A stretch of DNA of 43,487 nt from a bacterium. Lineage in GTDB: Bacteria; Patescibacteriota; CG2-30-54-11. The stretch covers positions 1 through 43,487 of the forward strand of contig JAKQHK010000101.1 in assembly GCA_029573015.1 (NCBI GenBank). Direction: 5' to 3'. Position 1 is the stretch's first letter. Each line of letters opens with the position of its first letter. Positions 1 through 32,041 of this stretch are shown piece after piece. The notes below the pieces were generated by a model that did no database searches, was not told the DNA's origin, and saw nothing but the letters and a program-made list of their open reading frames with translations. The translations under genes and the position numbers were made by a program.

Positions 1-106
1 TTTTTTTCACATCAAAGGCGGGGTCGAAAAAATGAAAGGGTTTGAACCCTTGGAAAGTGGCGTCGTAGCAACAAAAAAGACGCCTTCAGCGTCTCTTTGT
101 ACCATC

Positions 107-184
107 TGGGGTGACTGATGGGACTCGAACCCACGGCCTCCAGGGCCACAACCTGGCGCTCTAACCAACTGAGCTACAGTCACC
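107..184 (-). tRNA. tRNA-His (GUG), with G-1 and encoded CCA
   Basis: Reverse complement GGTGACTGTAGCTCAGTTGGTTAGAGCGCCAGGTTGTGGCCCTGGAGGCCGTGGGTTCGAGTCCCATCAGTCACCCCA folds as a cloverleaf; anticodon GTG, C73 discriminator. Confidence 0.96.
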
Positions 185-252
185 ATATTGATTGAATCGA
201 ATAATAAATGTACAGGATGAACCTTGGCCAAAGGCCAACCGTCCTCTGGACG

Positions 253-377
253 CAACTGCCCACCTCCGCTTATTCCTCTTTCGCTAACGCTTCAGAGGAC
301 TTCGGCTTCGGTGGATAATTTCGTCATCCACTCTCCGCCTACGGCGGATCGCGGTGACTCTCTAAAGCTACAGTCAC
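253..377 (-). repeat. Interrupted 5' copy of tRNA-His: GTGACTGTAGCT, then a 107-nt hairpin insert, then CAGTTG
   Basis: 377-366 is identical to tRNA-His nt 1-12 and 258-253 resumes the tRNA (CAGTTG). Insert 365-313 matches the 27955 repeat unit at 44/53 positions, ungapped. Confidence 0.85.
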
Positions 378-513
378 TACAAAACAGCTGAATAAAAATA
401 GCATAACTGACCAAAAAAGCAAACTCCTCTGTACTTCCCCGTTTTCGCAGAGCCGTCTCAAGGATAAATCTACGGGGTGGAACACGTCTCTCTTAATTTA
501 AGTGATTGTCACA

Positions 514-760
514 CTATATTTTCAATAATCTTTTGTGCATAAATGCTCGACCTGAACAAGTTTTTAAATATCGTTCAAAAGATAAGGCAAGCTCCTTGTC
601 ATCAAACGCAAAATAAGTTCTCAGTCTCCAAGGACGATATTTGCTAGTATAAACAGAATCGCCTTTATTATGTGCAGATACTCTCTGTAAAACATCCGTT
701 GTATAGCCAGTATAAACTTGCTCTGGATTCGCTATACTTTGAATGATATACCCAATACAT
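514..760 (-). pseudogene. Small GIY-YIG nuclease, frameshifted near the start
   Basis: Manual translation: ATG at 760 gives MYWVY. A shifted frame reads YIIQSIANPEQVYTGYTTDVLQRVSAHNKGDSVYTSKYRPWRLRTYFAFDDKELALSFERYLKTCSGRAFMHKRLLKI-stop (514). It has the VY..YTG, R..H and E.YLK motifs. Restoring 2 nt in the TATAT run joins the frames. Confidence 0.88.
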
Positions 761-801
761 TTTCGAATCGGTTAATATAATGGCTTGAAGTTAATTTAAT
801 C

Positions 802-919
802 TGCCCGCCTTCGTTATTCAACTTCGTCGGGCAGCCTTCGCTTCCTTTTTTTTGCAGTGGCGTGCCAGCCGTAGCTCGACAGAGCCCCATCGAATGACGG
901 GGCGAAAAAGAGCGAAGGC
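802..919. repeat. Cluster of GC-rich CGAAG/CTTCG-containing palindromes upstream of the GIY-YIG pseudogene
   Basis: tgcccgccttcg...cttcgtcgggca, agccttcgct...agcgaaggct and gccccatcgaatgacggggc form nested inverted repeats. Confidence 0.65.
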
Positions 920-1028
920 TGGTGCCCCCTTCGGGGATTACACCCCCTTCGGGGACTTCGCCCCCAGCAGGACTTCCTTCCCCTTCGTCGCGTTGCTCCT
1001 CAGTGTCAGGATAAACTTCTCGTCCTGC
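920..1028 (-). repeat. Interrupted 3' copy of tRNA-Arg(UCU), with inserts in the T-loop and acceptor strand
   Basis: Minus strand reads GCAGGACGAG[aag..hairpin..gaag]TCCTGCTGGG[two ccccgaagggg hairpins]GCACCA, versus tRNA GCAGGTTCGAGTCCTGCTGGGCGCACCA. Confidence 0.85.
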
Positions 1029-1130
1029 TTGATACTACTACCCCGTTTTCTGATGGACCGCTCCGAGGAAAACGGTCCCCTTTCTTTTGGCGTCACCTTT
1101 TCTTTCTTAAAGAAAAGGTGAAGGTATCAC

Positions 1131-1207
1131 TGGTGCGCCCAGCAGGACTTCCTACACTCCCCTCCGCCTTACGGCTCCGGCTCGCTTCAGGACAGGCTTC
1201 TCGTCCT
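1131..1207 (-). repeat. Second interrupted 3' copy of tRNA-Arg(UCU), with a T-loop insert
   Basis: 1131-1149 is identical to the tRNA 3' end (tggtgcgcccagcaggact). On the minus strand it is preceded by AGGACGAG[aag..hairpin..gaag]. Confidence 0.85.
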
Positions 1208-1210
1208 TTA

Positions 1211-1245
1211 TCTCAACTCACGACTCACAACTAACGACTCACGAC
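1211..1245. repeat. Degenerate 7-mer tandem repeat x5
   Basis: tctcaac tcacgac tcacaac taacgac tcacgac. Confidence 0.85.
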
Positions 1246-1252
1246 TATCTTG

Positions 1253-1329
1253 TGGTGCGCCCAGCAGGACTCGAACCTGCAACCTACTGCTTAGAAGGCA
1301 GTTGCTCTATCCAATTAAGCTATGAGCGC
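1253..1329 (-). tRNA. tRNA-Arg (UCU)
   Basis: Reverse complement GCGCTCATAGCTTAATTGGATAGAGCAACTGCCTTCTAAGCAGTAGGTTGCAGGTTCGAGTCCTGCTGGGCGCACCA; anticodon TCT, A20, CCA. Confidence 0.96.
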
Positions 1330-1475
1330 AGAAAGGCACGTATATATGGTAATGTGCTGCAACCTCTTACTCTTAAACTATACCATCAGCCGCCGAAAAA
1401 CCGCAACCGCTTTGGATTTACAGGCTACTCCGAGTTTGTTATGCTTTCACTATACAACTTAATAGTGGCGCAGCC

Positions 1476-2486
1476 ATGAGCCAGAATAAAAAGCAGCAGC
1501 ATGTCGATATCTGCCTGAAGCATCCGGTAGAGACCGGAACGAATGGTTTTGAAGCATACTGGTTTGAACATACCGCCCTACCGGAAATCGACCTGGCGGA
1601 AATAGCCACCAGTACGGAATTCCTTGGCAAAGCCATCAGCGCTCCGCTCATCATCAGCGCCATCACGGGCGGATCTGACAAGCTCGGAGCTATAAACCGC
1701 CATCTGGCACTGGCGGCACAACAACTCAATTTACCTCTCTGCGTCGGCTCGCTGAAAACCGCGCTCGAGCATCCGGAAACAGCCTCATCCTTTCAGGTAC
1801 GCCAGTATGCCCCCTCCATTCCCCTGCTCGCCAATCTCGGACTGGTGCAGCTCAATTACGGCTACGGACTGGACGAATGCCGAAGAGCAGTTGAGCTCAT
1901 CGAAGCGGATGCACTCGTGTTTCATCTCAACCCCCTCCAGGAAGCGATCAGCGCCGAGGGAGACACGAATTTCAAGCATCTGCTCTCCAAGCTGGAAAAA
2001 ATCATCCCGCAGCTTGGTGTACCGGTAATCATCAAGGAAGTCGGTTTCGGCATCTCCCGCCCGGTTGCCCAGAAACTTGCCAACATCGGGGTAAAATACA
2101 TCGACGTCAATGGCCGTGGCGGCACCAACTGGGCGCTCGTCGAAGGCATCCGAACGAACAATCCGATTAGCACAGCTTTTGCCACATGGGGCATTCCCAC
2201 GGCTACCTGCCTGCGTGACTGCCGGGATATTCACGGATTAACACTTATTGCCGGCGGTGGCATTCGTACCGGAGTCGATATCGCCAAATCCCTTGCGCTT
2301 GGCGCAGACTATGCCTCTCTGGCATTGCCTGTCCTCGCTGCTGCCGCTACCTCAGAGGCTGCGGTTGTCGAAGTTTTAACGGCACGCATCACCGAACTGC
2401 GCTATGCCATGTTCTCTACGGGCGAAAAAAACATCCACGCCCTGCAGCAGTCAAAAAAAATTCATCACCCGTCTGACCGGTTATGA
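1476..2486 (+). CDS. fni: Type 2 isopentenyl-diphosphate delta-isomerase (FMN-dependent)
   Basis: N-terminal K..HV..C, then ITGGS, HLNPLQE, KEVGFG, GRGGTNW and GGGIRTGVD motifs; 336 aa. Confidence 0.95.
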   Translation: MSQNKKQQHVDICLKHPVETGTNGFEAYWFEHTALPEIDLAEIATSTEFLGKAISAPLIISAITGGSDKLGAINRHLALAAQQLNLPLCVGSLKTALEHPETASSFQVRQYAPSIPLLANLGLVQLNYGYGLDECRRAVELIEADALVFHLNPLQEAISAEGDTNFKHLLSKLEKIIPQLGVPVIIKEVGFGISRPVAQKLANIGVKYIDVNGRGGTNWALVEGIRTNNPISTAFATWGIPTATCLRDCRDIHGLTLIAGGGIRTGVDIAKSLALGADYASLALPVLAAAATSEAAVVEVLTARITELRYAMFSTGEKNIHALQQSKKIHHPSDRL

Positions 2487-3766
2487 CCGACATCCTGCCG
2501 CTTATCAAAATTTTTGTCATCCTCGCCGTTATCGGCTGGTTCATCAGATTGAAACTGAATATCGGTGTCAATCTCTTTCTTGCCAGCATCCCGCTGGCAT
2601 TCCTCTTCAATTTCGATGCTCGGGACTGGCTGCAGTCGGCTGCCGAAGCGCTCAGCTATATGCCCACCCTGACACTCGCTGCGGTCATCATCAGCATCTC
2701 TGTGTTCTGCCGCATCTGGAAAGCAACCGGCCGCATGGATGAACTAGTGCGTTCCTTCGCTGAACTCGTGAGCTCACGTCGCCTCAGCCTCATGTTCTTC
2801 CCGAGCATCGTCGGACTGCTTCCCATGCCGGGCGGAGCATTTTTCTCCGCGCCGCTCGTGCAGGCAGCTGCCCGGAAAACCAGTCTGACTGTCGATGACC
2901 AGGCAACGATCAACTACTGGTTCCGCCATGTCTGGGAATTCGTCTGGCCGCTCTATCCGGCCATGCTCTGGTTCAGCGAAACGTACAAAGTCCCTCTGGT
3001 CAGGATCATACCCTACAGCGGGGTGATCACCCTGAGCGCCATTATCGGAGGCAATGTCGTCCTGTTCCGCAGGCTGGGCTCCCTCGCTGATTTCAGTATC
3101 CATCTGAAAAAGCTGCCGGCTTTCCTGAAAACACTCTCGCCCCTGCTCATCCTCGCATTTATCGCCATAACCAGCGCAACAACGCTGCCGTTACTCCATA
3201 CCCTGCTGCCGGAATCCATCTATTCCTCACAAAACATCCCGCTTATGATCGGAGTTGTCTGCGCTACCCTGTTTCTCGTCATCCGCAACCATCTCTCTCT
3301 GAAAACCGTCAACCAGCACATCCGATCTGCTGACGTTCCCGGCCTCGCGGCTATTGTGCTCGGGGTGATGATTTTTAAAGAAATGTTAACCGACAGCGGC
3401 GCTGCCACGGATATTGGGGCAGCTTTTCAGGCAGTACACATCCCCGCCCCCCTCTTTGTCGTCGTTTTTCCCCTGTTCCTCGGTGCCCTGCTCAGTTACA
3501 CCATGAGTTCCCTGAGCATTGCCCTGCCGATTGTTATTGCGAGCGTCGGCATCAACCCGGCTGATATGCAGGCAATTCTTCCTTATTTTATCCTCGTATT
3601 TGCCTCCACCTTTTTCGGCGTCATGCTCACGCCCCTGCATGCCTGTTTTGCCCTCACCCGGGAATACTTCCAGGCAAGCTGGGGCGGTATGCTCAAGCGG
3701 GTTGCGCCGGCCTATCTATTTCCCATGACCGCTGCGATCATTATGTTCGTGCTCATGAAGCAATAA
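2483..3766 (+). CDS. DUF401-like multi-pass membrane protein (putative transporter)
   Basis: GLLPMPGGAFFSAP and INYWFRHVWE..WPLYP motifs; many TM segments; ATGA overlap with fni. Confidence 0.85.
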   Translation: MTDILPLIKIFVILAVIGWFIRLKLNIGVNLFLASIPLAFLFNFDARDWLQSAAEALSYMPTLTLAAVIISISVFCRIWKATGRMDELVRSFAELVSSRRLSLMFFPSIVGLLPMPGGAFFSAPLVQAAARKTSLTVDDQATINYWFRHVWEFVWPLYPAMLWFSETYKVPLVRIIPYSGVITLSAIIGGNVVLFRRLGSLADFSIHLKKLPAFLKTLSPLLILAFIAITSATTLPLLHTLLPESIYSSQNIPLMIGVVCATLFLVIRNHLSLKTVNQHIRSADVPGLAAIVLGVMIFKEMLTDSGAATDIGAAFQAVHIPAPLFVVVFPLFLGALLSYTMSSLSIALPIVIASVGINPADMQAILPYFILVFASTFFGVMLTPLHACFALTREYFQASWGGMLKRVAPAYLFPMTAAIIMFVLMKQ

Positions 3767-3795
3767 AAAAACCAGGAGATGACTCCTGGTCTTTT
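3765..3795. terminator. Bidirectional intrinsic terminator
   Basis: aaaaaa-accaggag-atga-ctcctggt-ctttt between convergent genes. Confidence 0.75.
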
Positions 3796-3825
3796 GCTCA
3801 CTAAGCAGATCAAGATTAAAAGAAG

Positions 3826-4107
3826 CTAGGCATCCTTTTCCACGGCAATCGAGCAGCCGGTTGCCAATCCCACGATCAACCCGAGCACGGCAAGATAGGG
3901 AGCCAGGATGGAAGCGATGACTGCAATCGTGAGTGGCAGCTGAATCACCTGTTTGCCATCATGTGAAATCACCACCCGGCGCTTATTGCCTTCCTGGACT
4001 GCTTCCTTGCCTTTGGCGAGGACTTTCTCTCCGGCACAACAGAGACGTTCTTTTGCCTCAGGCTTGGCAGTCTTGGCAGCGGGTTTTTTCTTGCTTTCTT
4101 CGACCAT
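3826..4107 (-). CDS. DUF4342-like small membrane-associated protein
   Basis: K..V.EGN.RRV.I...G......P motif followed by a hydrophobic hairpin and C.I.VEK. Confidence 0.8.
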   Translation of the reverse strand: MVEESKKKPAAKTAKPEAKERLCCAGEKVLAKGKEAVQEGNKRRVVISHDGKQVIQLPLTIAVIASILAPYLAVLGLIVGLATGCSIAVEKDA

Positions 4108-4270
4108 GGATGATTCCTTGGACTAATGATTAGAGAGGGTGGTCCGCTATATCAGACCGCGTCCAGTGTACCACGGATGCGACGCTGAGGGTAGTCTTTT
4201 TCAGGCCATTTTGAGAATAAAACGAAAAAGCGTACACTGACACCGATAACTCGTACCAACAGGTAACCAC

Positions 4271-4762
4271 ATGGCAGACACATCAGTAACCAGCAAACAC
4301 GCTGTGCAACTCCTCGAGCTTTGTGCATCGCAGAACCTCACCCTCGCTGCTGCCGAATCCTGCACCGGCGGGGGCCTGGCCGCCTGTATTACCGGTGTAC
4401 CCGGCAGCTCCCACGTCTTCCGGGGCAGCATCGTCGCCTACAGCAATGAGATTAAAACAAGCGTCCTGCGCGTATCCCCTGAAACGCTCGCAGCGCATGG
4501 CGCGGTCAGCGAAGCGACCGCGCGGGAGATGAGCGAACGCATCTGCAGTCTCATGCACAGCGACATCGGCATCGGCATTACCGGCATCGCCGGCCCGGAC
4601 GGCGGCATGCCGGAAAAGCCGGTTGGGCTGGTGTATATCGCCATAACTGTCCAAGGGTCAACCGATGTAACGCAGCTGCACCTGATCGGCGACCGGCAGT
4701 CTATCCGCGAACAGGCTGTCAATGCCTCGCTTGATCAGTGTCTGAGAAAAATCAAGGGGTAG
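4271..4762 (+). CDS. cinA: CinA C-terminal domain / NMN amidohydrolase (PncC family)
   Basis: AESCTGG, PGSS, YSNE.K, GAVSE, GITGIAGP.GG...KPVGLV motifs. Confidence 0.93.
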   Translation: MADTSVTSKHAVQLLELCASQNLTLAAAESCTGGGLAACITGVPGSSHVFRGSIVAYSNEIKTSVLRVSPETLAAHGAVSEATAREMSERICSLMHSDIGIGITGIAGPDGGMPEKPVGLVYIAITVQGSTDVTQLHLIGDRQSIREQAVNASLDQCLRKIKG

Positions 4763-4953
4763 AGGTCAGAATTTAGAGGTTAGGGACTAGGAATAACCAT
4801 TCATAACAAGTTCTAACCAGCAATAACAGTTGGTTTGGGTCACGAGTCCAAAGTCTCTAGTCAGGGAACAGGTGTGAGGTGTACCGATACTATAGCGCCT
4901 GTCGCCTTTCCCCTGTACTCTCTCCCCTGCTCCCTTTGTGTTCTTCGTGGTAA
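4760..4953. repeat. Intergenic composite of degenerate 7-mer tracts
   Basis: tagaggt cagaatt tagaggt tagggac taggaat (4760-4794); agtccaa agtctct agtcagg gaacagg tgtgagg; gcgcctg tcgcctt tcccctg tactctc tcccctg. The last two tracts are partly complementary. Confidence 0.6.
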
Positions 4954-4963
4954 AAAAAAGCTA

Positions 4964-5629
4964 CTAGTCCCGATGCCGCATCTGTGTTTCCAGCCAGACG
5001 ATCATCTCCTCCAGGCCAGTACCTTTGGTTGCCGAAACTTCGAACGTGATGGCATCGGTATTGCACATGAGAATATTGTCATAAATCTGCTTCAAGTCAG
5101 TCCCGAGTATTTCAGCAAGGTCAACCTTGTTGATGGCAACCGCCTGGGTCCGGGCAAACATGACCGGATATTTCAGGGGTTTATCCTCGCCCTCGGTGAT
5201 GCTCAGGACCACGAGTCGGGCATGCTCGCCAATGTCAAACTCAGCCGGGCAGACGAGATTGCCGACATTCTCGATGATGAGGACGTCCAGATTATCAAGG
5301 TCGAACTGTTTGAGGGCATTTTTGACCATGAGCGCATTCATATGACAGCTGCTTCCGTATTTCTGAGTGATGATCTGCACAGCCTGGATACCGAGCGCCG
5401 CGATCCGATCCCGGTCGCGGGTGGTGGCCATATCACCCTCGATCACCCCCATACGGTATTTGCCGGTTAGTCTGGTAATCAGCGCTTCCAGCAGGGTCGT
5501 TTTGCCGGCTCCCGGGCTGCCCATGACATTGAGGCAATAAACGTTCTTTTCCTGAAAAACCCGGCGGATTTCTGCAGCCAGCCGGTCATTGTCCTCGAGA
5601 ATTGCTTTATCAACCACGATTTCAGTCAT
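4964..5629 (-). CDS. hypB: Hydrogenase nickel incorporation GTPase HypB
   Basis: GSPGAGKTT P-loop, IEGD, CH, ENVGNLVCPAEFD, EGEDKPLKYP and NKVD motifs. Confidence 0.97.
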   Translation of the reverse strand: MTEIVVDKAILEDNDRLAAEIRRVFQEKNVYCLNVMGSPGAGKTTLLEALITRLTGKYRMGVIEGDMATTRDRDRIAALGIQAVQIITQKYGSSCHMNALMVKNALKQFDLDNLDVLIIENVGNLVCPAEFDIGEHARLVVLSITEGEDKPLKYPVMFARTQAVAINKVDLAEILGTDLKQIYDNILMCNTDAITFEVSATKGTGLEEMIVWLETQMRHRD

Positions 5630-5655
5630 GCTGTCTTCCTCCTGAATACAACAAA

Positions 5656-5683
5656 CGTGCCTGTCGTCATGCTGACAGGCACG
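5656..5683 (-). terminator. Hairpin, probable intrinsic terminator just upstream of hypB
   Basis: 10-bp stem cgtgcctgtc/gacaggcacg followed on the minus strand by TTTGTTGT. Confidence 0.55.
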
Positions 5684-5707
5684 CCTATTTTGCCATGAAC
5701 CGCAGGA

Positions 5708-6391
5708 TTACTGCAAGGGAGCGCTGAGCGGCGTATCTGCCGGCGCGGCAGGATCAGTCGGGGTTTCCGTGCTGCCCTGCTCCAGTTCCTCAAGATTCTT
5801 TATCGCGGTAAGTATTTCAGCATCCGGACGGATATCCTCGATAAACAGGATCGTATCCTTGCGGATACGCAGATTCTGGGTCGGCTGGTGCAGCTCGGTC
5901 TGACCAAGCTTGGTCAGATTCAGTTTCTGCTGGACATCACCCTTGTCATCCTCCTCTTCCTTGACTTTCAGATAGTACACATCCGCGCACCAGACATACT
6001 CGTCATTGAGCTCGGCAAGCTTGCAGAAATAAACTTGGTTGTTGTTCAGGAATACTGCCTGATACTGACCGTTGTACGGGGAAAGCTGTTCTTTTTCCTC
6101 CAGCTCGTAGAGGATGTTATCCGTGTTGTTATTAACTGCTTTAATGACCGATACCGAGGCGATCAGCACGCTGAAGGAGATGACAAACAAACCGACGATC
6201 GTCACAATCCGCAGGAGATAGTCTTTTTCCATATCCTCCTCGCAGCAACAGCAACTCTCCTCCTCGGCCGGCAGAAAGCTTGCCTGCTCTGGCGCTTTCA
6301 CCGCCACATGCGGTTTTTCTGTATGTTCGTGGCTAACTTCCGCTGTTGGTGCGTCCGGTTTTTTTTCTTTACTTGCTTTGGGCATAATCAT
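5708..6391 (-). CDS. Single-TM conserved hypothetical protein (start may be 6385)
   Basis: AGGAGG RBS, one TM helix, and a YQAVFL.N.QVYF.KL...DVYYL...L.KLG..ELH.P motif that I recall from CPR proteins; N-terminal CCCC run. Confidence 0.8.
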   Translation of the reverse strand: MIMPKASKEKKPDAPTAEVSHEHTEKPHVAVKAPEQASFLPAEEESCCCCEEDMEKDYLLRIVTIVGLFVISFSVLIASVSVIKAVNNNTDNILYELEEKEQLSPYNGQYQAVFLNNNQVYFCKLAELNDEYVWCADVYYLKVKEEEDDKGDVQQKLNLTKLGQTELHQPTQNLRIRKDTILFIEDIRPDAEILTAIKNLEELEQGSTETPTDPAAPADTPLSAPLQ

Positions 6392-6411
6392 GTCCTCCTG
6401 CTAGATGCATG

Positions 6412-6438
6412 AAGCGGCCCGCCGCTGGCGGGCCGCTT
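6412..6438 (-). terminator. GC-rich hairpin after the giant surface-protein gene
   Basis: Perfect 12-bp stem aagcggcccgcc/ggcgggccgctt. Confidence 0.65.
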
Positions 6439-6476
6439 GTCAGTATAGCTATTCGCGTGCGATCTCGCAACTGCTG

Positions 6477-9400
6477 TTATGGCTCGATCGCCATCCAGTA
6501 GAACGAACTGTTGACATCGCCAGAACAATACGCAGTAAACTGGCTGGCAGTTACTCCACTTACCGTAACACGTGTGTTAACCGTATTGATCGGGGTAGCG
6601 GTTATAATCGGGGCTACACCAAAGGCAGCAGGATAATTAACAACAACAGTACCCGCTGCGCAGGTACCCATGCCCCTCTGCAAGTCAGCATCTGTCAGGA
6701 CGGTCGATCCACCAACTGTAGCGCTACCTGCGCTAAGAGCTCCAGCAGTTGTAATCGAACCAGCTGTTAGCGCTCCGCCAGTTGTAATACTTGCTGCGGA
6801 AAGCGCACCAGAAGTAGTAATGCTCCCTGCACTAAGTGCACCAGCAGTCGTAAAGCTTCCAGCAGATACTGCCCCGCTAGCTGTAAGTGATACTGCACCG
6901 ATTGACCCAGCACCAATGATATTGCCTCCCGTGATGGACAAACCACCATTAATAAAGCTCGCAGCAGTAAACGTACCACCAGCAGCAGTGATCGAGCCAT
7001 TAGACTGATCAATCCTAAGGACTTCTGCGCCAGCAGGAGCAACATTCGATCTCACAACAACATCACCAACAAAGGTGTTGTCATTGCCGGTTGAAGTCGT
7101 GCTGACATATCCGAACTGCCCAAGCCCTGCAGCCTGGATGCTGGAAACGCTAATCGTGGCGCTGGTGGCGCTGATATTGTTGCCTGCAATGGTCACATTG
7201 CCGTCATCATCTACAGAGAACACCGCATTGGCTGTACCGGAATTTTCAATCTCAAACCCACCGCCAGCCTGAACCGTAACCGGCTGACCGGTCGAATTAA
7301 CGATTTTCCCCTGGATATCAATGCTTCTTACGGTGGTATTACCGTCGACATTGAGTTCATTATTCAGATCAACATTTCCGCTTACCGTAGCTCCACCGCT
7401 GACCGTCATGCCATCTTCGATTGTTGCTCCGTCCTTGAGAGTTGTCGCTCCATTCACCGTCATGCCGCCGGTGATGGTAACACCAGCATTGAGTGTGGCA
7501 ATGTCATCATCAACCGTCACGCCGTCAAGAGTCGTTGCGCCGTTGACATCGAGGTTGCCGGTTACATTCAAGTTAGCAAGACCAAGAGCACCGGTCAGCG
7601 TCATGTTATCAGCAGTTATATCTGTGGCATCCACATCCCCATTCTCATCAACCGTGAAAACCGGCACAGCCGCAACGGAATTTACTTGAATCGCTACCGC
7701 ATCGTCAGCCGGTGTGAGGATGATATCCGTCGGATCGATGGAACCGCTCACATAAAGGTCGCCTATTACTGCGACATGTTTGCCTGTGCTGGCAGCATTT
7801 CCGAGCGGATCGACTGCAAACACAGTCGTCTCGGTTGTGTAATCCTGAACCGCGATACCCTGGTCATCCCGCAGATACAGCGGATTGGCTTCACCGGATC
7901 CGATAGAACCGGTTACATGCAGCCGGTCATTAACACTCACATAATTAGTGTCACTCGCTGTGCCGTTCATGATCGTTGCTGCGTAGACCGTGTTCCAACC
8001 GTTTGATCCGGATCCCAGATTCCTACTTCCGGTCGGAATAATGTTGGTGTTGATACGTCCGTTGACCGAAATCGTGTCAGCAGCAGCATCCCCGAGATCA
8101 ACCGTACCATTAAGCGTGGTGGCGCCGTCAACTGTCAAATTACCGGTATTATCCAGATCGCCATTATTCGTCGTCGGCTGTCCCATGGGATAGAATTGTA
8201 CATCGCCATAGAGATAGACGCCTTTGCCGGCACTACCGATGTCGGCATCACCGTCATGGTCAATCGCACTGTCAACATCACCACGAAAGAAATTACTGCC
8301 ATGTAATGTCATATCGCCGTAGAAATCCGATGCCGCTTGCACCGTCAGGACATCATTCAGTGTGGTCGCCCCATCAACGTCAAGCGTGCCGGTGATGTAG
8401 GCATCATCACAATAGGTGGATCCCCCCACCGCAACACTCAAGCAACCGATGAAGTCGTCAGCATAGATTTCATCCCATTCCAACCCTGCTGCACCAAGAT
8501 CAAATGTTTGGTGTGCGTTGGGAACAACATCGCTGTTGATGCGGGCATTGTAGACGACTATGTCGCCCAATGCATCACCAAGGAGAGTATTGCCCGAGAC
8601 AGATAGTGTATTACCGACACTTACGTTGTTGCTGATTGTTGCATTGTTACCAACGGTCAAATTGACATCGGCGGTAACATTGTTTAAAGCTCTGACATTA
8701 TTGTCCGCTCGTACATCTACCGCGGACCGGATGGTGTTGGCAGCATACACATTGCCATCCTCTGTGACCAGGAAAACATCAGCGGTATCAAGTGAATCAC
8801 GCACCTCGATCACATCCTGGCCATCCCCGATCGGCTGGAAATAAATCGCCGTGGGATCAATAGTACCGGTTACCTCCAGGTCGCCATTGATACTCACTTC
8901 ATAGTGAGACGCCATAGGGCCCGCCTCTGGTACGCCATTACGCATGGTGACAAAAGTATTGCCATCACTGCGGAAATCAAACCCATGGCTATCGCCAAAG
9001 ATGAGGGGGTCAGCATCTCCGGAACCGATGGAATCAGTGACGAGCAGACGGTCATCAACCATGACATATCCGCTGTTAGCAGCAGGATTGCTGTTGTAGA
9101 TGGCTCCCTGGATATCGATTGTATCAGTAGCGTCAGTCCCCAGCACCGTATCTTCGTAAACATTCAAATAGTCGGTGTTGATTGTCGTCGCCGTAATGGT
9201 ATCAACAAACAGATTAGCCCACTCACGTGCTGCAGAACCGAGATTATAAGCAAGCGTCGTGCTTGGCAGAACGTCCGCTCTTATATCCACAATACCTGTC
9301 TGGGGCACGAGGAAAATATTTCCTCCGCCGGCTGTGGTACGAATGGTGAGTGCCCCGCCAACTTTCTGAATTGCATTATTAAGCACTCCTGTCTGGTTGC

Positions 9401-28237: not shown

Positions 28238-28314
28238 GCCCCCTTAGCTCAACTGGATAGAGTACCTGGCTTCGAACCAGATGGTTGGGGGTTCAAATCC
28301 TCCAGGGGGCACCA
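28238..28314 (+). tRNA. tRNA-Arg (UCG)
   Basis: GCCCCCTTAGCTCAACTGGATAGAGTACCTGGCTTCGAACCAGATGGTTGGGGGTTCAAATCCTCCAGGGGGCACCA; anticodon loop CTTCGAA, A20, CCA. Confidence 0.95.
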
Positions 28315-28337
28315 CCGACAATACAAACGATTGGGAT

Positions 28338-28479
28338 CAACCCAACCCGTCAGATCCCGTGAGCGCAGCGAAGCGGGATTCAAATCCTCCAGGGGGCACC
28401 AATGATAACATTTTCGAATAAGACCAACTCAACCCGTCAGATCCCGTGAACAGCGTGAAGCGGGATTCAAATCCTCCAG
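28338..28479 (+). repeat. Two 87-nt-period units: hairpin plus duplicated tRNA-Arg(UCG) 3' end
   Basis: caacccgtcag-atcccgtga..gaagcgggat-tcaaatcctccag(ggggcacca); 28379-28401 is identical to the last 23 nt of the tRNA. Confidence 0.88.
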
Positions 28480-28527
28480 TAGACCACCTGTGTTCCTATT
28501 TTTTCACTTAATCCGCAAGCATAATCC

Positions 28528-30802: not shown

Positions 30803-30826
30803 ACTGTTTGTCGCATAAATAGGCGC

Positions 30827-30942
30827 GGGTCGCTAGCTTCAGATCATTCGATCTGATAAACAATCGGTAGTTAGTTGCCTCTTAAGCAATTGGTTCAGGG
30901 TTTCCGGTCATCCGACCGGACCGGGTCGTATGACCCGGCGAG
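30827..30942 (+). pseudogene. Interrupted, 3'-truncated copy of tRNA-Lys with two hairpin inserts
   Basis: gggtcgctagct[tcagatcattcgatctgataaa]caatcggtagttagttgcctcttaagcaattggttcagggtt[tccggtcatccgaccgga ccgggtcgtatgacccgg]cgag. Confidence 0.9.
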
Positions 30943-30972
30943 TTATGTTTAATAACCCACTATGCTGTCTCA

Positions 30973-31254
30973 ATGTATTACGTCTATTTTCTACTCCTCG
31001 CCAATGGCGACATATACAAAGGTTCGTGTTCTGATGTGCAACAACGTCTGATTGATCATCAAAACGGTCGTGTCAAATCCACCCAGCATTATCTGCCATT
31101 TCATCTTATCGGATACGAATGTTATTATTTAAAAAGTGATGCGCTGAGAAGAGAAAAATTCCTGAAAACAACAGAGGGGCGTCGTTTACTCAAACAGCAA
31201 TATAAGGATATAATTAATCATCTGACCGAAAATATTTCCCAAACGGGTCGCTAG
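30973..31254 (+). CDS. Small GIY-YIG nuclease (UPF0213/SLX1-like)
   Basis: MYYVYFL....G.IYKG...D...RL..H..G...ST..Y.P..L..YE......A..RE.FLKT..GR; its last codons and stop lie within the tRNA-Lys 5' end. Confidence 0.93.
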   Translation: MYYVYFLLLANGDIYKGSCSDVQQRLIDHQNGRVKSTQHYLPFHLIGYECYYLKSDALRREKFLKTTEGRRLLKQQYKDIINHLTENISQTGR

Positions 31255-31319
31255 CTCAATGGTAGAGCAGTTGCCTCTTAAGCAATTGGTTCAGGGTTCG
31301 AGCCCCTGGCGACCCACCA
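31245..31319 (+). tRNA. tRNA-Lys (CUU)
   Basis: GGGTCGCTAGCTCAATGGTAGAGCAGTTGCCTCTTAAGCAATTGGTTCAGGGTTCGAGCCCCTGGCGACCCACCA; anticodon CTT. Confidence 0.96.
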
Positions 31320-31344: not shown

Positions 31345-31779
31345 TCAGGGGCGAGAAGTAAGATCCCCTGCAATCCCGAAGCTCTGGGATGGAAGGGGAA
31401 GCCCCTGGTTTACCCGCCGAACCCTGAACGAAGTGAAGGGGAAGGCGGGCGACCCACCACAGATCTTAACGAATCGGCCAACGGACGATGAGTTTAGAAA
31501 TGTGGTGTACCGGATGATGTCAGATCAGCATCCGGTACAGAGCAAGAAAACGTTAGTATGCAAAGCGTTTCCACAGGATGGAAAATTTTTTTATCAGGGG
31601 CGAGACGTACAGCCCTGAGTATAGAGAAGAACAAGGTCCGCTGTAGTCAGCCAAAGGCTGACGGAAGCGGAAGCCCCTGGTTTACCCGCCGAACCCTGAA
31701 CGAAGTGAAGGGGAAGGCGGGCGACCCACCACAGATCTTAACGAATCGGCCAACGGACGATGAGTTTAGAGATGTGGTG
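31345..31779 (+). repeat. Two interrupted 3' copies of tRNA-Lys, including a 111-bp direct repeat (31397-31507 and 31669-31779, 1 mismatch)
   Basis: tcaggggcgag[variable hairpin..gaag]cccctgg[tttacccgcc..ggcggg]cgacccacca at 31345-31459 and 31594-31731. Confidence 0.9.
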
Positions 31780-31835
31780 AATTGATTGACGCACCAGCGA
31801 CAACTAAAACTATATAAAACATCGGTTGTAAGCAG

Positions 31836-31863
31836 GCTCTTCCTCGTAGGAAGAGCTTTTTTT
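31836..31863 (+). terminator. Intrinsic terminator closing the tRNA-Lys locus
   Basis: gctcttcct-cgt-aggaagagc-ttttttt. Confidence 0.8.
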
Positions 31864-32041
31864 GACTTGCGATAATCGCCCCCAGTACTGATAGACTAGG
31901 TATGCAATATGACGGCACAAACTGCTAAAACATTATATTGCCTCGAACATCTGATCAGCGCACACTGCTAACGCTTAACTATATACCGCTAGCACCAGCA
32001 ACACTAGGTCGAATAATAATCTTTCATATAAAGGCATCTTG

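Follow-up and report, generated by a model that had tools for sequence, protein, structure and literature searches.

Partial tRNA copies behind two tRNA genes

The stretch of DNA analysed here (the window) is the complete 43,487-nt contig JAKQHK010000101.1 of GCA_029573015.1, an assembly from the patescibacterial lineage CG2-30-54-11. Counts for this genome refer to 1.35 Mb in 140 contigs (label G000, in which the window is contig C81); the genomes of other members of the phylum measure 0.5-1.5 Mb, a size in keeping with Patescibacteria/CPR. Judged by IF-2 (68% identity), the closest relative with a name is a metagenome-assembled genome of Candidatus Wirthbacteria. The window contains four intact tRNA genes, which are the sole calls by ARAGORN and cmscan. 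Two of them, tRNA-Arg(UCU) (1253-1329, minus strand; ARAGORN; Rfam tRNA 73.4 bits) and tRNA-Lys(CUU) (31245-31319, plus strand; ARAGORN and Rfam), are each followed by two copies of their own 3' part, in which a hairpin-bearing insert, the cassette, stands at the T-loop. An original prediction made from the sequence had placed four such copies here, and inspection bore out all of them together with their positions.

Arg copy 1 (1131-1209, minus strand; cassette 1141-1209) scores 52.6 bits with R1, a covariance model built from 10 cassettes, and repeats tRNA positions 59-77 exactly (19 nt, 1131-1149; 100% in blastn-short). Arg copy 2 (920-1028, minus strand; cassette 966-1028; R1 54.5 bits) has the same T-stem 3' strand as copy 1 and a diverged acceptor strand with at least one substitution, in which an extra hairpin precedes GCACCA. 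The spacer that separates the two Arg copies contains a palindrome (1093-1121) with self-matches on contigs C133, C52, C41 and C3. On the other side of the window, Lys copy 1 (31345-31459, plus strand; cassette 31346-31408; R1 53.4 bits) and Lys copy 2 (31594-31731, plus strand; cassette 31595-31680; R1 39.4 bits) have near-identical flanks around unrelated interiors, carry an identical hairpin within the acceptor strand, and end with the last 11 nt of the tRNA. Folding thus agrees with the prediction that three of the four copies bear a second palindrome in the acceptor strand. All four copies lack the 5' acceptor strand, and by eye no complement of the acceptor 3' strand was found upstream. 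Neither ARAGORN nor the Rfam tRNA model (RF00005) calls any of them a tRNA.

The four cassettes are built alike. In each copy a T-stem-like helix (P1) is combined with a GAGAAG bulge and a variable hairpin, after which the cognate tRNA sequence continues from position 59 through CCA. At the level of sequence, GG(A/G)CGAG(A/C)... replaces the tRNA's GGTTCGAG in all four, and the insert terminates with GGAAG, directly followed by the T-stem 3' strand. RNAfold gave one architecture for all of them, with P1 of 5-7 bp, a 10-11-nt bulge on the 5' side, the helix P2, internal loops rich in purines and a hairpin at the tip. In P1 the 5' arm of the cassette pairs with tRNA positions 59-65 and gives every copy a T-stem-like helix; the prediction had suggested folding to see whether the T-stem is retained. 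The hexamer GAGAAG is constant apart from GAGACG in Lys copy 2; 4-5 nt come next, and one or two A residues separate the part with P2 and the hairpin from tRNA position 59.

P1 and P2 covary. Among 28 distinct rows of this phylum, 86.7% of the cells are paired, and the two innermost P1 pairs change (A-U/C-G, A-U/U-A, G-C/C-G) in step with tRNA positions 59-60, the dinucleotide before GAGAAG pairing with these positions in 26 of the 28 rows. The pattern loci supplied 86 distinct rows, in which 91.5% of the cells are paired and 74 are changed on both sides; the observed score was reached by none of 500 shuffles and slid registers were only 33-65% paired. For both sets it should be noted that the alignments had been fitted to the model and that rows from relatives are not independent. 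In loci such as L166, AT stands opposite TT at the dinucleotide before GAGAAG, and because of this the dinucleotide looks element-borne or selected, not copied from the target. The original prediction had seen in the constant junctions and variable cargo a templated, repeated process. Repetition is supported, as the junctions recur behind 14 or more tRNA isotypes from several phyla with differing interiors, but the templated part is left unsupported by the L166-like loci.

In Rfam 15 no match to the cassette was found, either in the whole window at gathering thresholds or in both loci at E up to 10, where the output consisted of tRNAs and noise. Readings of the cassette as a K-turn, a hammerhead or a bulge-helix-bulge were tried by eye and dropped. 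The YGAGA start may resemble the T-loop pentanucleotide motif, which would suit the reading as a structured RNA discussed below.

Recurrence of tail copies and cassettes

The pattern is far more general than the four copies first noticed. In this genome, 16 of 32 tRNA and transfer-messenger RNA (tmRNA) genes have their own last 11 nt repeated within 520 nt downstream on the same strand, while none of the 32 has such a copy upstream and none has it as reverse complement. Tails of foreign genes were found in 5 of 982 flank comparisons, and four of these five are neighbouring real tRNA genes. Therefore the downstream own-tail copies exceed chance. Exact 3' fragments detected with blastn-short (17 copies of 13 genes, 16-23 nt) start at tRNA positions 54-60 and reach the gene end; exact 5' fragments are three in number (Ala 1-17, Pro(UGG) 1-17 and Lys 25-54). 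In genomes whose tRNA genes encode no CCA, the copies are likewise devoid of CCA and run on into a copy of the trailer, and on both counts the copies derive from the gene, not from the mature tRNA. By eye, the tRNA-proximal copies are exact and the distal ones decayed at Arg(UCU), Arg(UCG) and Ser(GCU), and also in arrays of Aquimarina and Winogradskyella; thus, new units seem to be added beside the live gene.

The GAGAAG cassette itself is present behind Arg(UCU), Lys, Ser(GCU) and a Ser tail on contig C22, with a truncated one behind Arg(ACG). In a second type of T-loop interruption (Ala, Asn, Val), a single GC hairpin or a pair of them, with loops of the TCATYCGA type, is placed precisely between positions 57 and 58, and a third type stands before an intact T-loop (Arg(UCG), Glu). 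The latter design is found in the window at tRNA-Arg(UCG) (28238-28500, plus strand), of whose 3' part there are two copies: a hairpin (CAGATCCCG...CGGGA) abuts the intact T-loop and is followed by the T-stem 3' strand and the acceptor, copy 1 being exact over 23 nt and copy 2 decayed. On C20 the same hairpin type stands before the copy of tRNA-Glu(UUC), and in the relative G002 before a copy of Arg(ACG).

To follow the cassette into other genomes, R1 was applied to 61 related ones, of which 10 had matches, among them all four of the family; a 100%-complete genome of another family had seven. Outside the seed loci there were 17 matches, 15 with an ARAGORN tRNA within about 200 nt upstream and two without a tRNA, and most of the 15 carry, as judged by eye, the tail of that same tRNA. 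The exact 19-nt core GGAYGAGAAGTTTAYCCTG was found in at least 120 stretches of a 185,579-species collection, against about 17 expected by our own estimate for equal base frequencies. Among the matches listed, the carriers are labelled as Flavobacteriaceae and other Bacteroidota, as metagenome-assembled genomes of Gammaproteobacteria or Pseudomonadota, and as many lineages of the candidate phyla radiation. The junction motif, on whose conservation at additional loci the original prediction had been made to depend beforehand, was recovered in the genome-wide, R1 and core searches alike. In collections of phages, plasmids and E. coli, a cassette unit had no match.

In 80 loci, 95 core matches were examined under a closing rule that is strict on P1. 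In 51 matches the cognate tRNA lies upstream (at most one mismatch in a tail of 11-14 nt), representing 14 isotypes with Thr(UGU) occurring 25 times. Another 16 close P1 without a matching tRNA in the locus, mostly at the locus edge, and the remaining 28 fail the strict rule owing to single P1 mismatches, truncations or, in about 8 cases, chance matches in coding-like DNA. R1 finds 101 cassettes in these loci, in arrays of up to eight units with a spacing of about 114 nt. In Aquimarina, Winogradskyella and Lutibacter the units measure 110-137 nt, and each contains a tail, a trailer that includes a terminator hairpin, and a cassette. A mirror image of this arrangement exists in Maribacter (L152, 5223-5450), where three tandem 5' fragments of tRNA-Met upstream of the gene are each followed by the inverted hairpin core of the cassette, without GAGAAG; such inverted cores at 5' fragments are the symmetry expected of DNA ends.

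Other repeats accompany these copies. A repeat of the last 16 nt of the tmRNA gene lies about 160 nt downstream of it (C85, 903-918, minus strand). 5' fragments (positions 1-26) lie upstream of the intact genes of Pro(UGG) (L108, on C60, 4443-4770, minus strand) and Ala(UGC) (L110, on C112, approximately 4732-4796, plus strand, within the rRNA operon spacer), and in both a double hairpin of one kind separates position 17 from position 18. Directly after CCA, a hairpin of about 48 nt recurs genome-wide, being found behind Lys copy 1 (31460-31507, plus strand, pairing read by eye), behind Lys copy 2 (31732-31779, plus strand, by sequence comparison) and also at the tmRNA (C85), Pro(UGG) and Arg(ACG). 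In this hairpin the CCA pairs with a downstream TGG, and by eye it contains tandem G-A/A-G oppositions and shows compensatory changes between copies. A second post-CCA module, CCA-GCC...GGCTGG (CCATCC/GGATGG in G001), comes after the CCA of several tRNAs or copies in this genome; in the window it is the hairpin-rich segment that starts directly past the CCA of Arg copy 2 (800-919, minus strand), and further examples are on C2, C20, C103 and C133 and in the relatives' loci L010 and L014. It precedes a GIY-YIG open reading frame (ORF) in the window, L166 and L161, and is found elsewhere without an ORF.

Small GIY-YIG nuclease genes at tRNA genes

This genome encodes seven small single-domain GIY-YIG ORFs (PF01541) in addition to one protein of UvrC size. 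Their open frames comprise 85-106 aa with the exception of one of 252 aa, and four of the seven adjoin tRNAs. No named family in NCBIfam or PHROGs matched the GIY-YIG proteins above the cut-off.

Two of these ORFs are in the window. The first, with 93 aa (30973-31254, plus strand; PF01541 E 1.5e-10), overlaps the start of tRNA-Lys with its 3' end, and the solved structures nearest to its product are the UPF0213 proteins 1zg2 and 1ywl. Upstream of it is a decayed older tRNA-Lys copy (30826-30965, plus strand) with a retained 5' end, a hairpin in the D-loop, a double hairpin in the T-loop after position 55 and a degraded 3' end; its anticodon arm (30873-30902) is still 100% identical to that of the live gene. 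The second ORF (517-750, minus strand; PF01541 match 553-750, E 4.2e-13) has no in-frame ATG, GTG or TTG start, is absent from the ORF list, and lies between the Arg array and the tRNA-His(GUG) gene, which is downstream of it (107-183, minus strand; ARAGORN, Rfam). It aligns with the cassette-adjacent GIY-YIG ORFs of L161, L166 and L230.

These three loci show how the ORF can be combined with the cassette. In L166 the order is tRNA-Arg(UCU), cassette plus tail, post-CCA module, GIY-YIG ORF, cassette plus tail, an order that the Arg locus of the window shares as far as the ORF and that L161 and L230 resemble. In both L166 and L161 the ORF lies between two tail copies with the post-CCA module before it. 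The ORF of L166 is flanked by two GAGAAG cassettes, the ORFs of the window by other hairpin types. When 80 cassette loci were searched for cassettes with a long insert or an ORF inside the hairpin, none was found. At two loci of this genome, a GIY-YIG ORF has the intact tRNA gene on one side and a hairpin-interrupted 5' tRNA fragment on the other; on C60, for example, it stands between the tRNA-Pro fragment (1-26, two hairpins at 17/18) and the gene. On C3, the ORF follows tRNA-Ser(UGA) in a 1.65-kb islet bounded by tail-plus-trailer repeats. The islet (L109) also holds an ORF of about 275 aa (2075-2900), which by eye looks nuclease-like.

In 59 of 80 loci encoding relatives of this GIY-YIG type, the ORF is preceded on its own strand, at a distance below 600 nt, by a tRNA or tmRNA gene; in 4 such a gene lies downstream. 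The 59 loci belong to many phyla, and 11 of their ORFs are behind tmRNA genes in other phyla. This demonstrates a close linkage of the family with tRNA and tmRNA genes. Genomes with R1 matches have on average 7.2 GIY-YIG matches as compared to 3.3 in those without, values that are hand sums over relatives which are not independent.

Explanations for the cassettes and comparison with known systems

The anatomy of the cassette and its recurrence, genome-wide and across phyla, are matters of observation. As their explanation we propose that each of the four copies is the end or the scar, without a gene, of a GIY-YIG cassette nesting at tRNA genes. Such cassettes would be small selfish DNA acting at the DNA level, and we give this proposal an even chance of being correct. 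According to this proposal, new DNA would enter a tRNA gene at the T-loop, with the junction at position 58/59, in such a way that the tRNA stays intact: the segment from position 59 through the trailer would then be present twice, and the older 3' end would be displaced downstream, capped by the end of the element. This end would be an oriented, conserved hairpin module (GGRY, GAGAAG, N4-5, variable hairpin, A), the first nucleotides of which pair with tRNA positions 59-65 and remake a T-arm-like helix. Complete elements would carry the gene for a single-domain GIY-YIG nuclease of about 90 aa, and most copies would be without it. By analogy, the nuclease may break the T-loop box as the phage endonuclease SegB does, or bind a folded hairpin of single-stranded DNA (ssDNA) like the Ssn nucleases. 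The breaks would be repaired by recombination, and tandem arrays could build up from recurrent events at the live tRNA combined with unequal recombination. An interrupted T-loop would then mark cleavage-resistant copies, which are no longer targets.

In favour of the proposal we count the junctions, with exact fragments beginning at positions 54-60 and own-tail copies on the downstream side alone, the origin of the copies from the gene, the decay of distal copies, the linkage of the nuclease genes to tRNAs here and in relatives, the inverted cores of Maribacter, and SegB and the Ssn nucleases as precedents.

Several observations weigh against the selfish-cassette proposal. A GIY-YIG ORF was found within 1 kb in only 3 of the 80 cassette loci, and anywhere in the locus in none of the Bacteroidota-labelled ones, using a hidden Markov model built from seven sequences, which may miss distant members. 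A second tail past the ORF exists in only 3 of the 59 tRNA-linked GIY-YIG loci. No pair of filled and empty sites was found, the comparison of G001 with G003 at tRNA-Lys giving no clean insertion boundaries. No polymorphism was seen either: two DNA metagenome contig sets compared with window positions 1-8000 contained no array-informative indel or joint, the joints listed being cross-matches between tRNAs. Moreover, the proposal leaves the origin of the first copy at a new tRNA unexplained. The remaining points on this side are equally arguments for the main rival explanation, that the cassette is a structured RNA, and are given with it.

In this rival explanation the cassette would be a pseudo-T-arm in the 3' trailer of the tRNA precursor, or a small RNA gene derived from a tRNA gene. 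Its action would concern 3' processing of tRNA, stability, or a factor reading the T-arm and 3' end, and a requirement of the RNA for the tail copies would account for their retention. In line with this, the core is kept across phyla while trailers and interiors diverge, and downstream of a tRNA it is strictly co-oriented with it; 40 of 48 core occurrences near a tRNA are downstream, on the same strand and with GAGAAG. Both helices covary, as described above, and one P2 pair, most often U-G (37 rows), is U-A in 25 rows and C-G in 21. The sense strand folds better than the antisense strand in 21 of 26 cases, so the fold is strand-specific, which fits an RNA or one DNA strand. In the window there is no terminator-like site between tRNA-Arg(UCU) and its copies, and tRNA-Lys and both of its copies are enclosed by a promoter-like site (31185-31214) and a terminator-like hairpin (31834-31866, plus strand), the first strong one past the array in a terminator scan. 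Both arrays are probably transcribed, as they precede the first terminator-like site.

Other data speak against a structured RNA. Between tRNA and cassette, a terminator hairpin followed by a T-run is present in Flavobacteria and also in G001 and G003, the acceptor strand of the copies has no partner, and Rfam contains no such family. The cassettes turn over fast between genera of one family, and distal copies decay. In addition, the core is inverted in the 5' fragments of Maribacter. Together these data make us regard the RNA explanation as possible, though rather unlikely.

It is improbable, in our opinion, that the hairpins are palindromes similar to repetitive extragenic palindromic (REP) elements and are moved by a Y1 transposase (IS200/RAYT-type) or another enzyme acting on ssDNA hairpins. 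Such an enzyme would insert them into the loops of existing hairpins such as the T-arm, and the tRNA fragments would arise by separate local duplication. Indeed, the genome has three Y1 transposase genes and several other hairpin families; one of them, the TCATYCGA-type with a GC stem, is present in 18 copies, some in T- or D-loops of tRNA fragments and others elsewhere. Nested hairpin insertions also enlarge cassettes, as seen when Gln(UUG) is compared with Gln(CUG) in G006, and G003 with G001 at Arg(ACG). However, the hairpins flanking the three Y1 genes are by eye unlike the cassette, which, a few chance matches in coding DNA aside, occurs only together with a tRNA tail. Moreover, the constant 58/59 junction with its exact tail is not explained in this way.

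Partial tRNA genes left by integrated elements are common (PMC9897764, available part), and the copies could accordingly be attL/attR remnants of integrase-type islands in tRNA genes, later deleted to about 100 nt. The exact repeats of 16-23 nt agree with the direct repeats required for such remnants, and the repeat-bounded islet past tRNA-Ser(UGA) would suit them as well. We nevertheless reject this origin as very improbable because there is no associated integrase: the genome has only two tyrosine recombinases (PF00589; on C2 and C50), neither of them inside an array, and the one on C2 scores as XerC/XerD-like. Furthermore, the units are only 80-280 nt long, the flavobacterial arrays lie in core context beside ORFs of tuf-like size (judged by size alone), and att sites do not feature a conserved junction cassette. 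Finally, retro-copies made from tRNA 3'-end cDNA halted at the modified A58 can practically be dismissed, for although the 58/59 boundary corresponds to the classical primer-binding-site length of 18 nt and the genome has one reverse transcriptase gene, the copies extend into the gene trailer and are without CCA where the gene encodes none. The reverse transcriptase (354 aa, resembling those of group II introns and diversity-generating retroelements; C127, 137-1201, on a 1.9-kb contig) is, as far as tested, unrelated to the tRNA copies.

The consequences of tRNA-nesting selfish cassettes are of interest for several reasons. If the proposal is true, a large group of tiny GIY-YIG proteins so far without an assigned function gains a setting beside tRNA and tmRNA genes, whether as their parasites or as their companions, and a conserved 45-90-nt module, present in several phyla and absent from Rfam, gains an explanation. 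It is tempting to speculate further, with less confidence than for the proposal itself, that the GAGAAG pseudo-T-arm is an undescribed cross-phylum module, an ssDNA or RNA mimic of the T-arm, and could be the working end of a new miniature mobile element that homes to tRNA T-loops, is driven in trans by single-domain GIY-YIG nucleases, and is present as satellite arrays of about 110-nt units even in cultured Flavobacteria. Since arrays occur in cultured marine Flavobacteria, the RNA and DNA readings are directly testable; among the cultured carriers of arrays are strains of Aquimarina rubra, Winogradskyella algicola, Maribacter algicola and Salinimicrobium sediminis. The module is also a ready marker for annotating the pseudo-tRNA pieces that confuse tRNA predictors. 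Last but not least, it is a candidate recognition site for small strand-specific nucleases, for which a biotechnological interest has been stated (PMC11893778). In the literature outside subscription journals and supplements, neither the cassette nor chromosomal small GIY-YIG genes nested at tRNAs were found to be described.

Among known tandem repeats, those at the 3' end of E. coli tyrT, from which RtT RNA originates, are co-transcribed units that each contain the last ~19 nt of the tRNA. They are thus similar in being placed behind a tRNA gene and ending in its 3' segment. They differ in that cmscan found no RtT match at E up to 10 and the cassette unit has no match in E. coli, and to our knowledge RtT is without a pseudo-T-arm module. 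The displaced tRNA fragments at integrated elements share with our copies the repeated tRNA 3' segment and the functional gene restored upstream, as far as the available part of PMC9897764 describes them. The loci studied here differ by having no integrase, tandem units of about 100 nt, and a conserved structured cassette at the junction.

SegB has, in addition to its nuclease part, a DNA-binding part. The available text on SegB (PMC13096335) describes it as a free-standing GIY-YIG homing endonuclease from the tRNA gene cluster of T-even phages, which cuts within tRNA genes at RAWTSGAAC, the complement of the T-loop box, its breaks leading to recombination-dependent tandem amplification of tRNA-containing segments. 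The location of a GIY-YIG gene among tRNA genes is common to both systems, with 4 of 7 small ORFs here and 59 of the 80 loci of relatives. On the other side, SegB is a phage protein, the amplified unit comprises whole genes and is unstable, and in the same text neither a conserved hairpin cassette nor partial tRNA ends are described (PMC13096335). Compared with it, the ORFs found here, of about 90 aa, are chromosomal and mostly absent from the arrays.

For the Ssn nucleases, the comparison concerns the hairpin. According to the accessible text of PMC11893778, they are 94-aa single-domain GIY-YIG enzymes of the cd10448 clade, which bind exclusively to oriented hairpin repeats in ssDNA, cleaving a few nucleotides upstream, and their genes are often flanked by these SRM/NTS repeats. 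The best match of the printed NTS consensus in this genome has 5 mismatches in 28 positions and lies away from tRNAs, no dRS3 core is present, the text just mentioned contains no reference to tRNA, and the proteins encoded here are structurally nearest to UPF0213. What is shared is the size of a single-domain GIY-YIG protein and oriented hairpin repeats whose 5' flank is conserved while the loop tolerates variation (PMC11893778). An Ssn-like, strand-specific action could therefore explain the strict orientation of the cassettes without any RNA. Thus, by analogy, the cassette system appears to work most like SegB in combination with Ssn and its SRM repeats.

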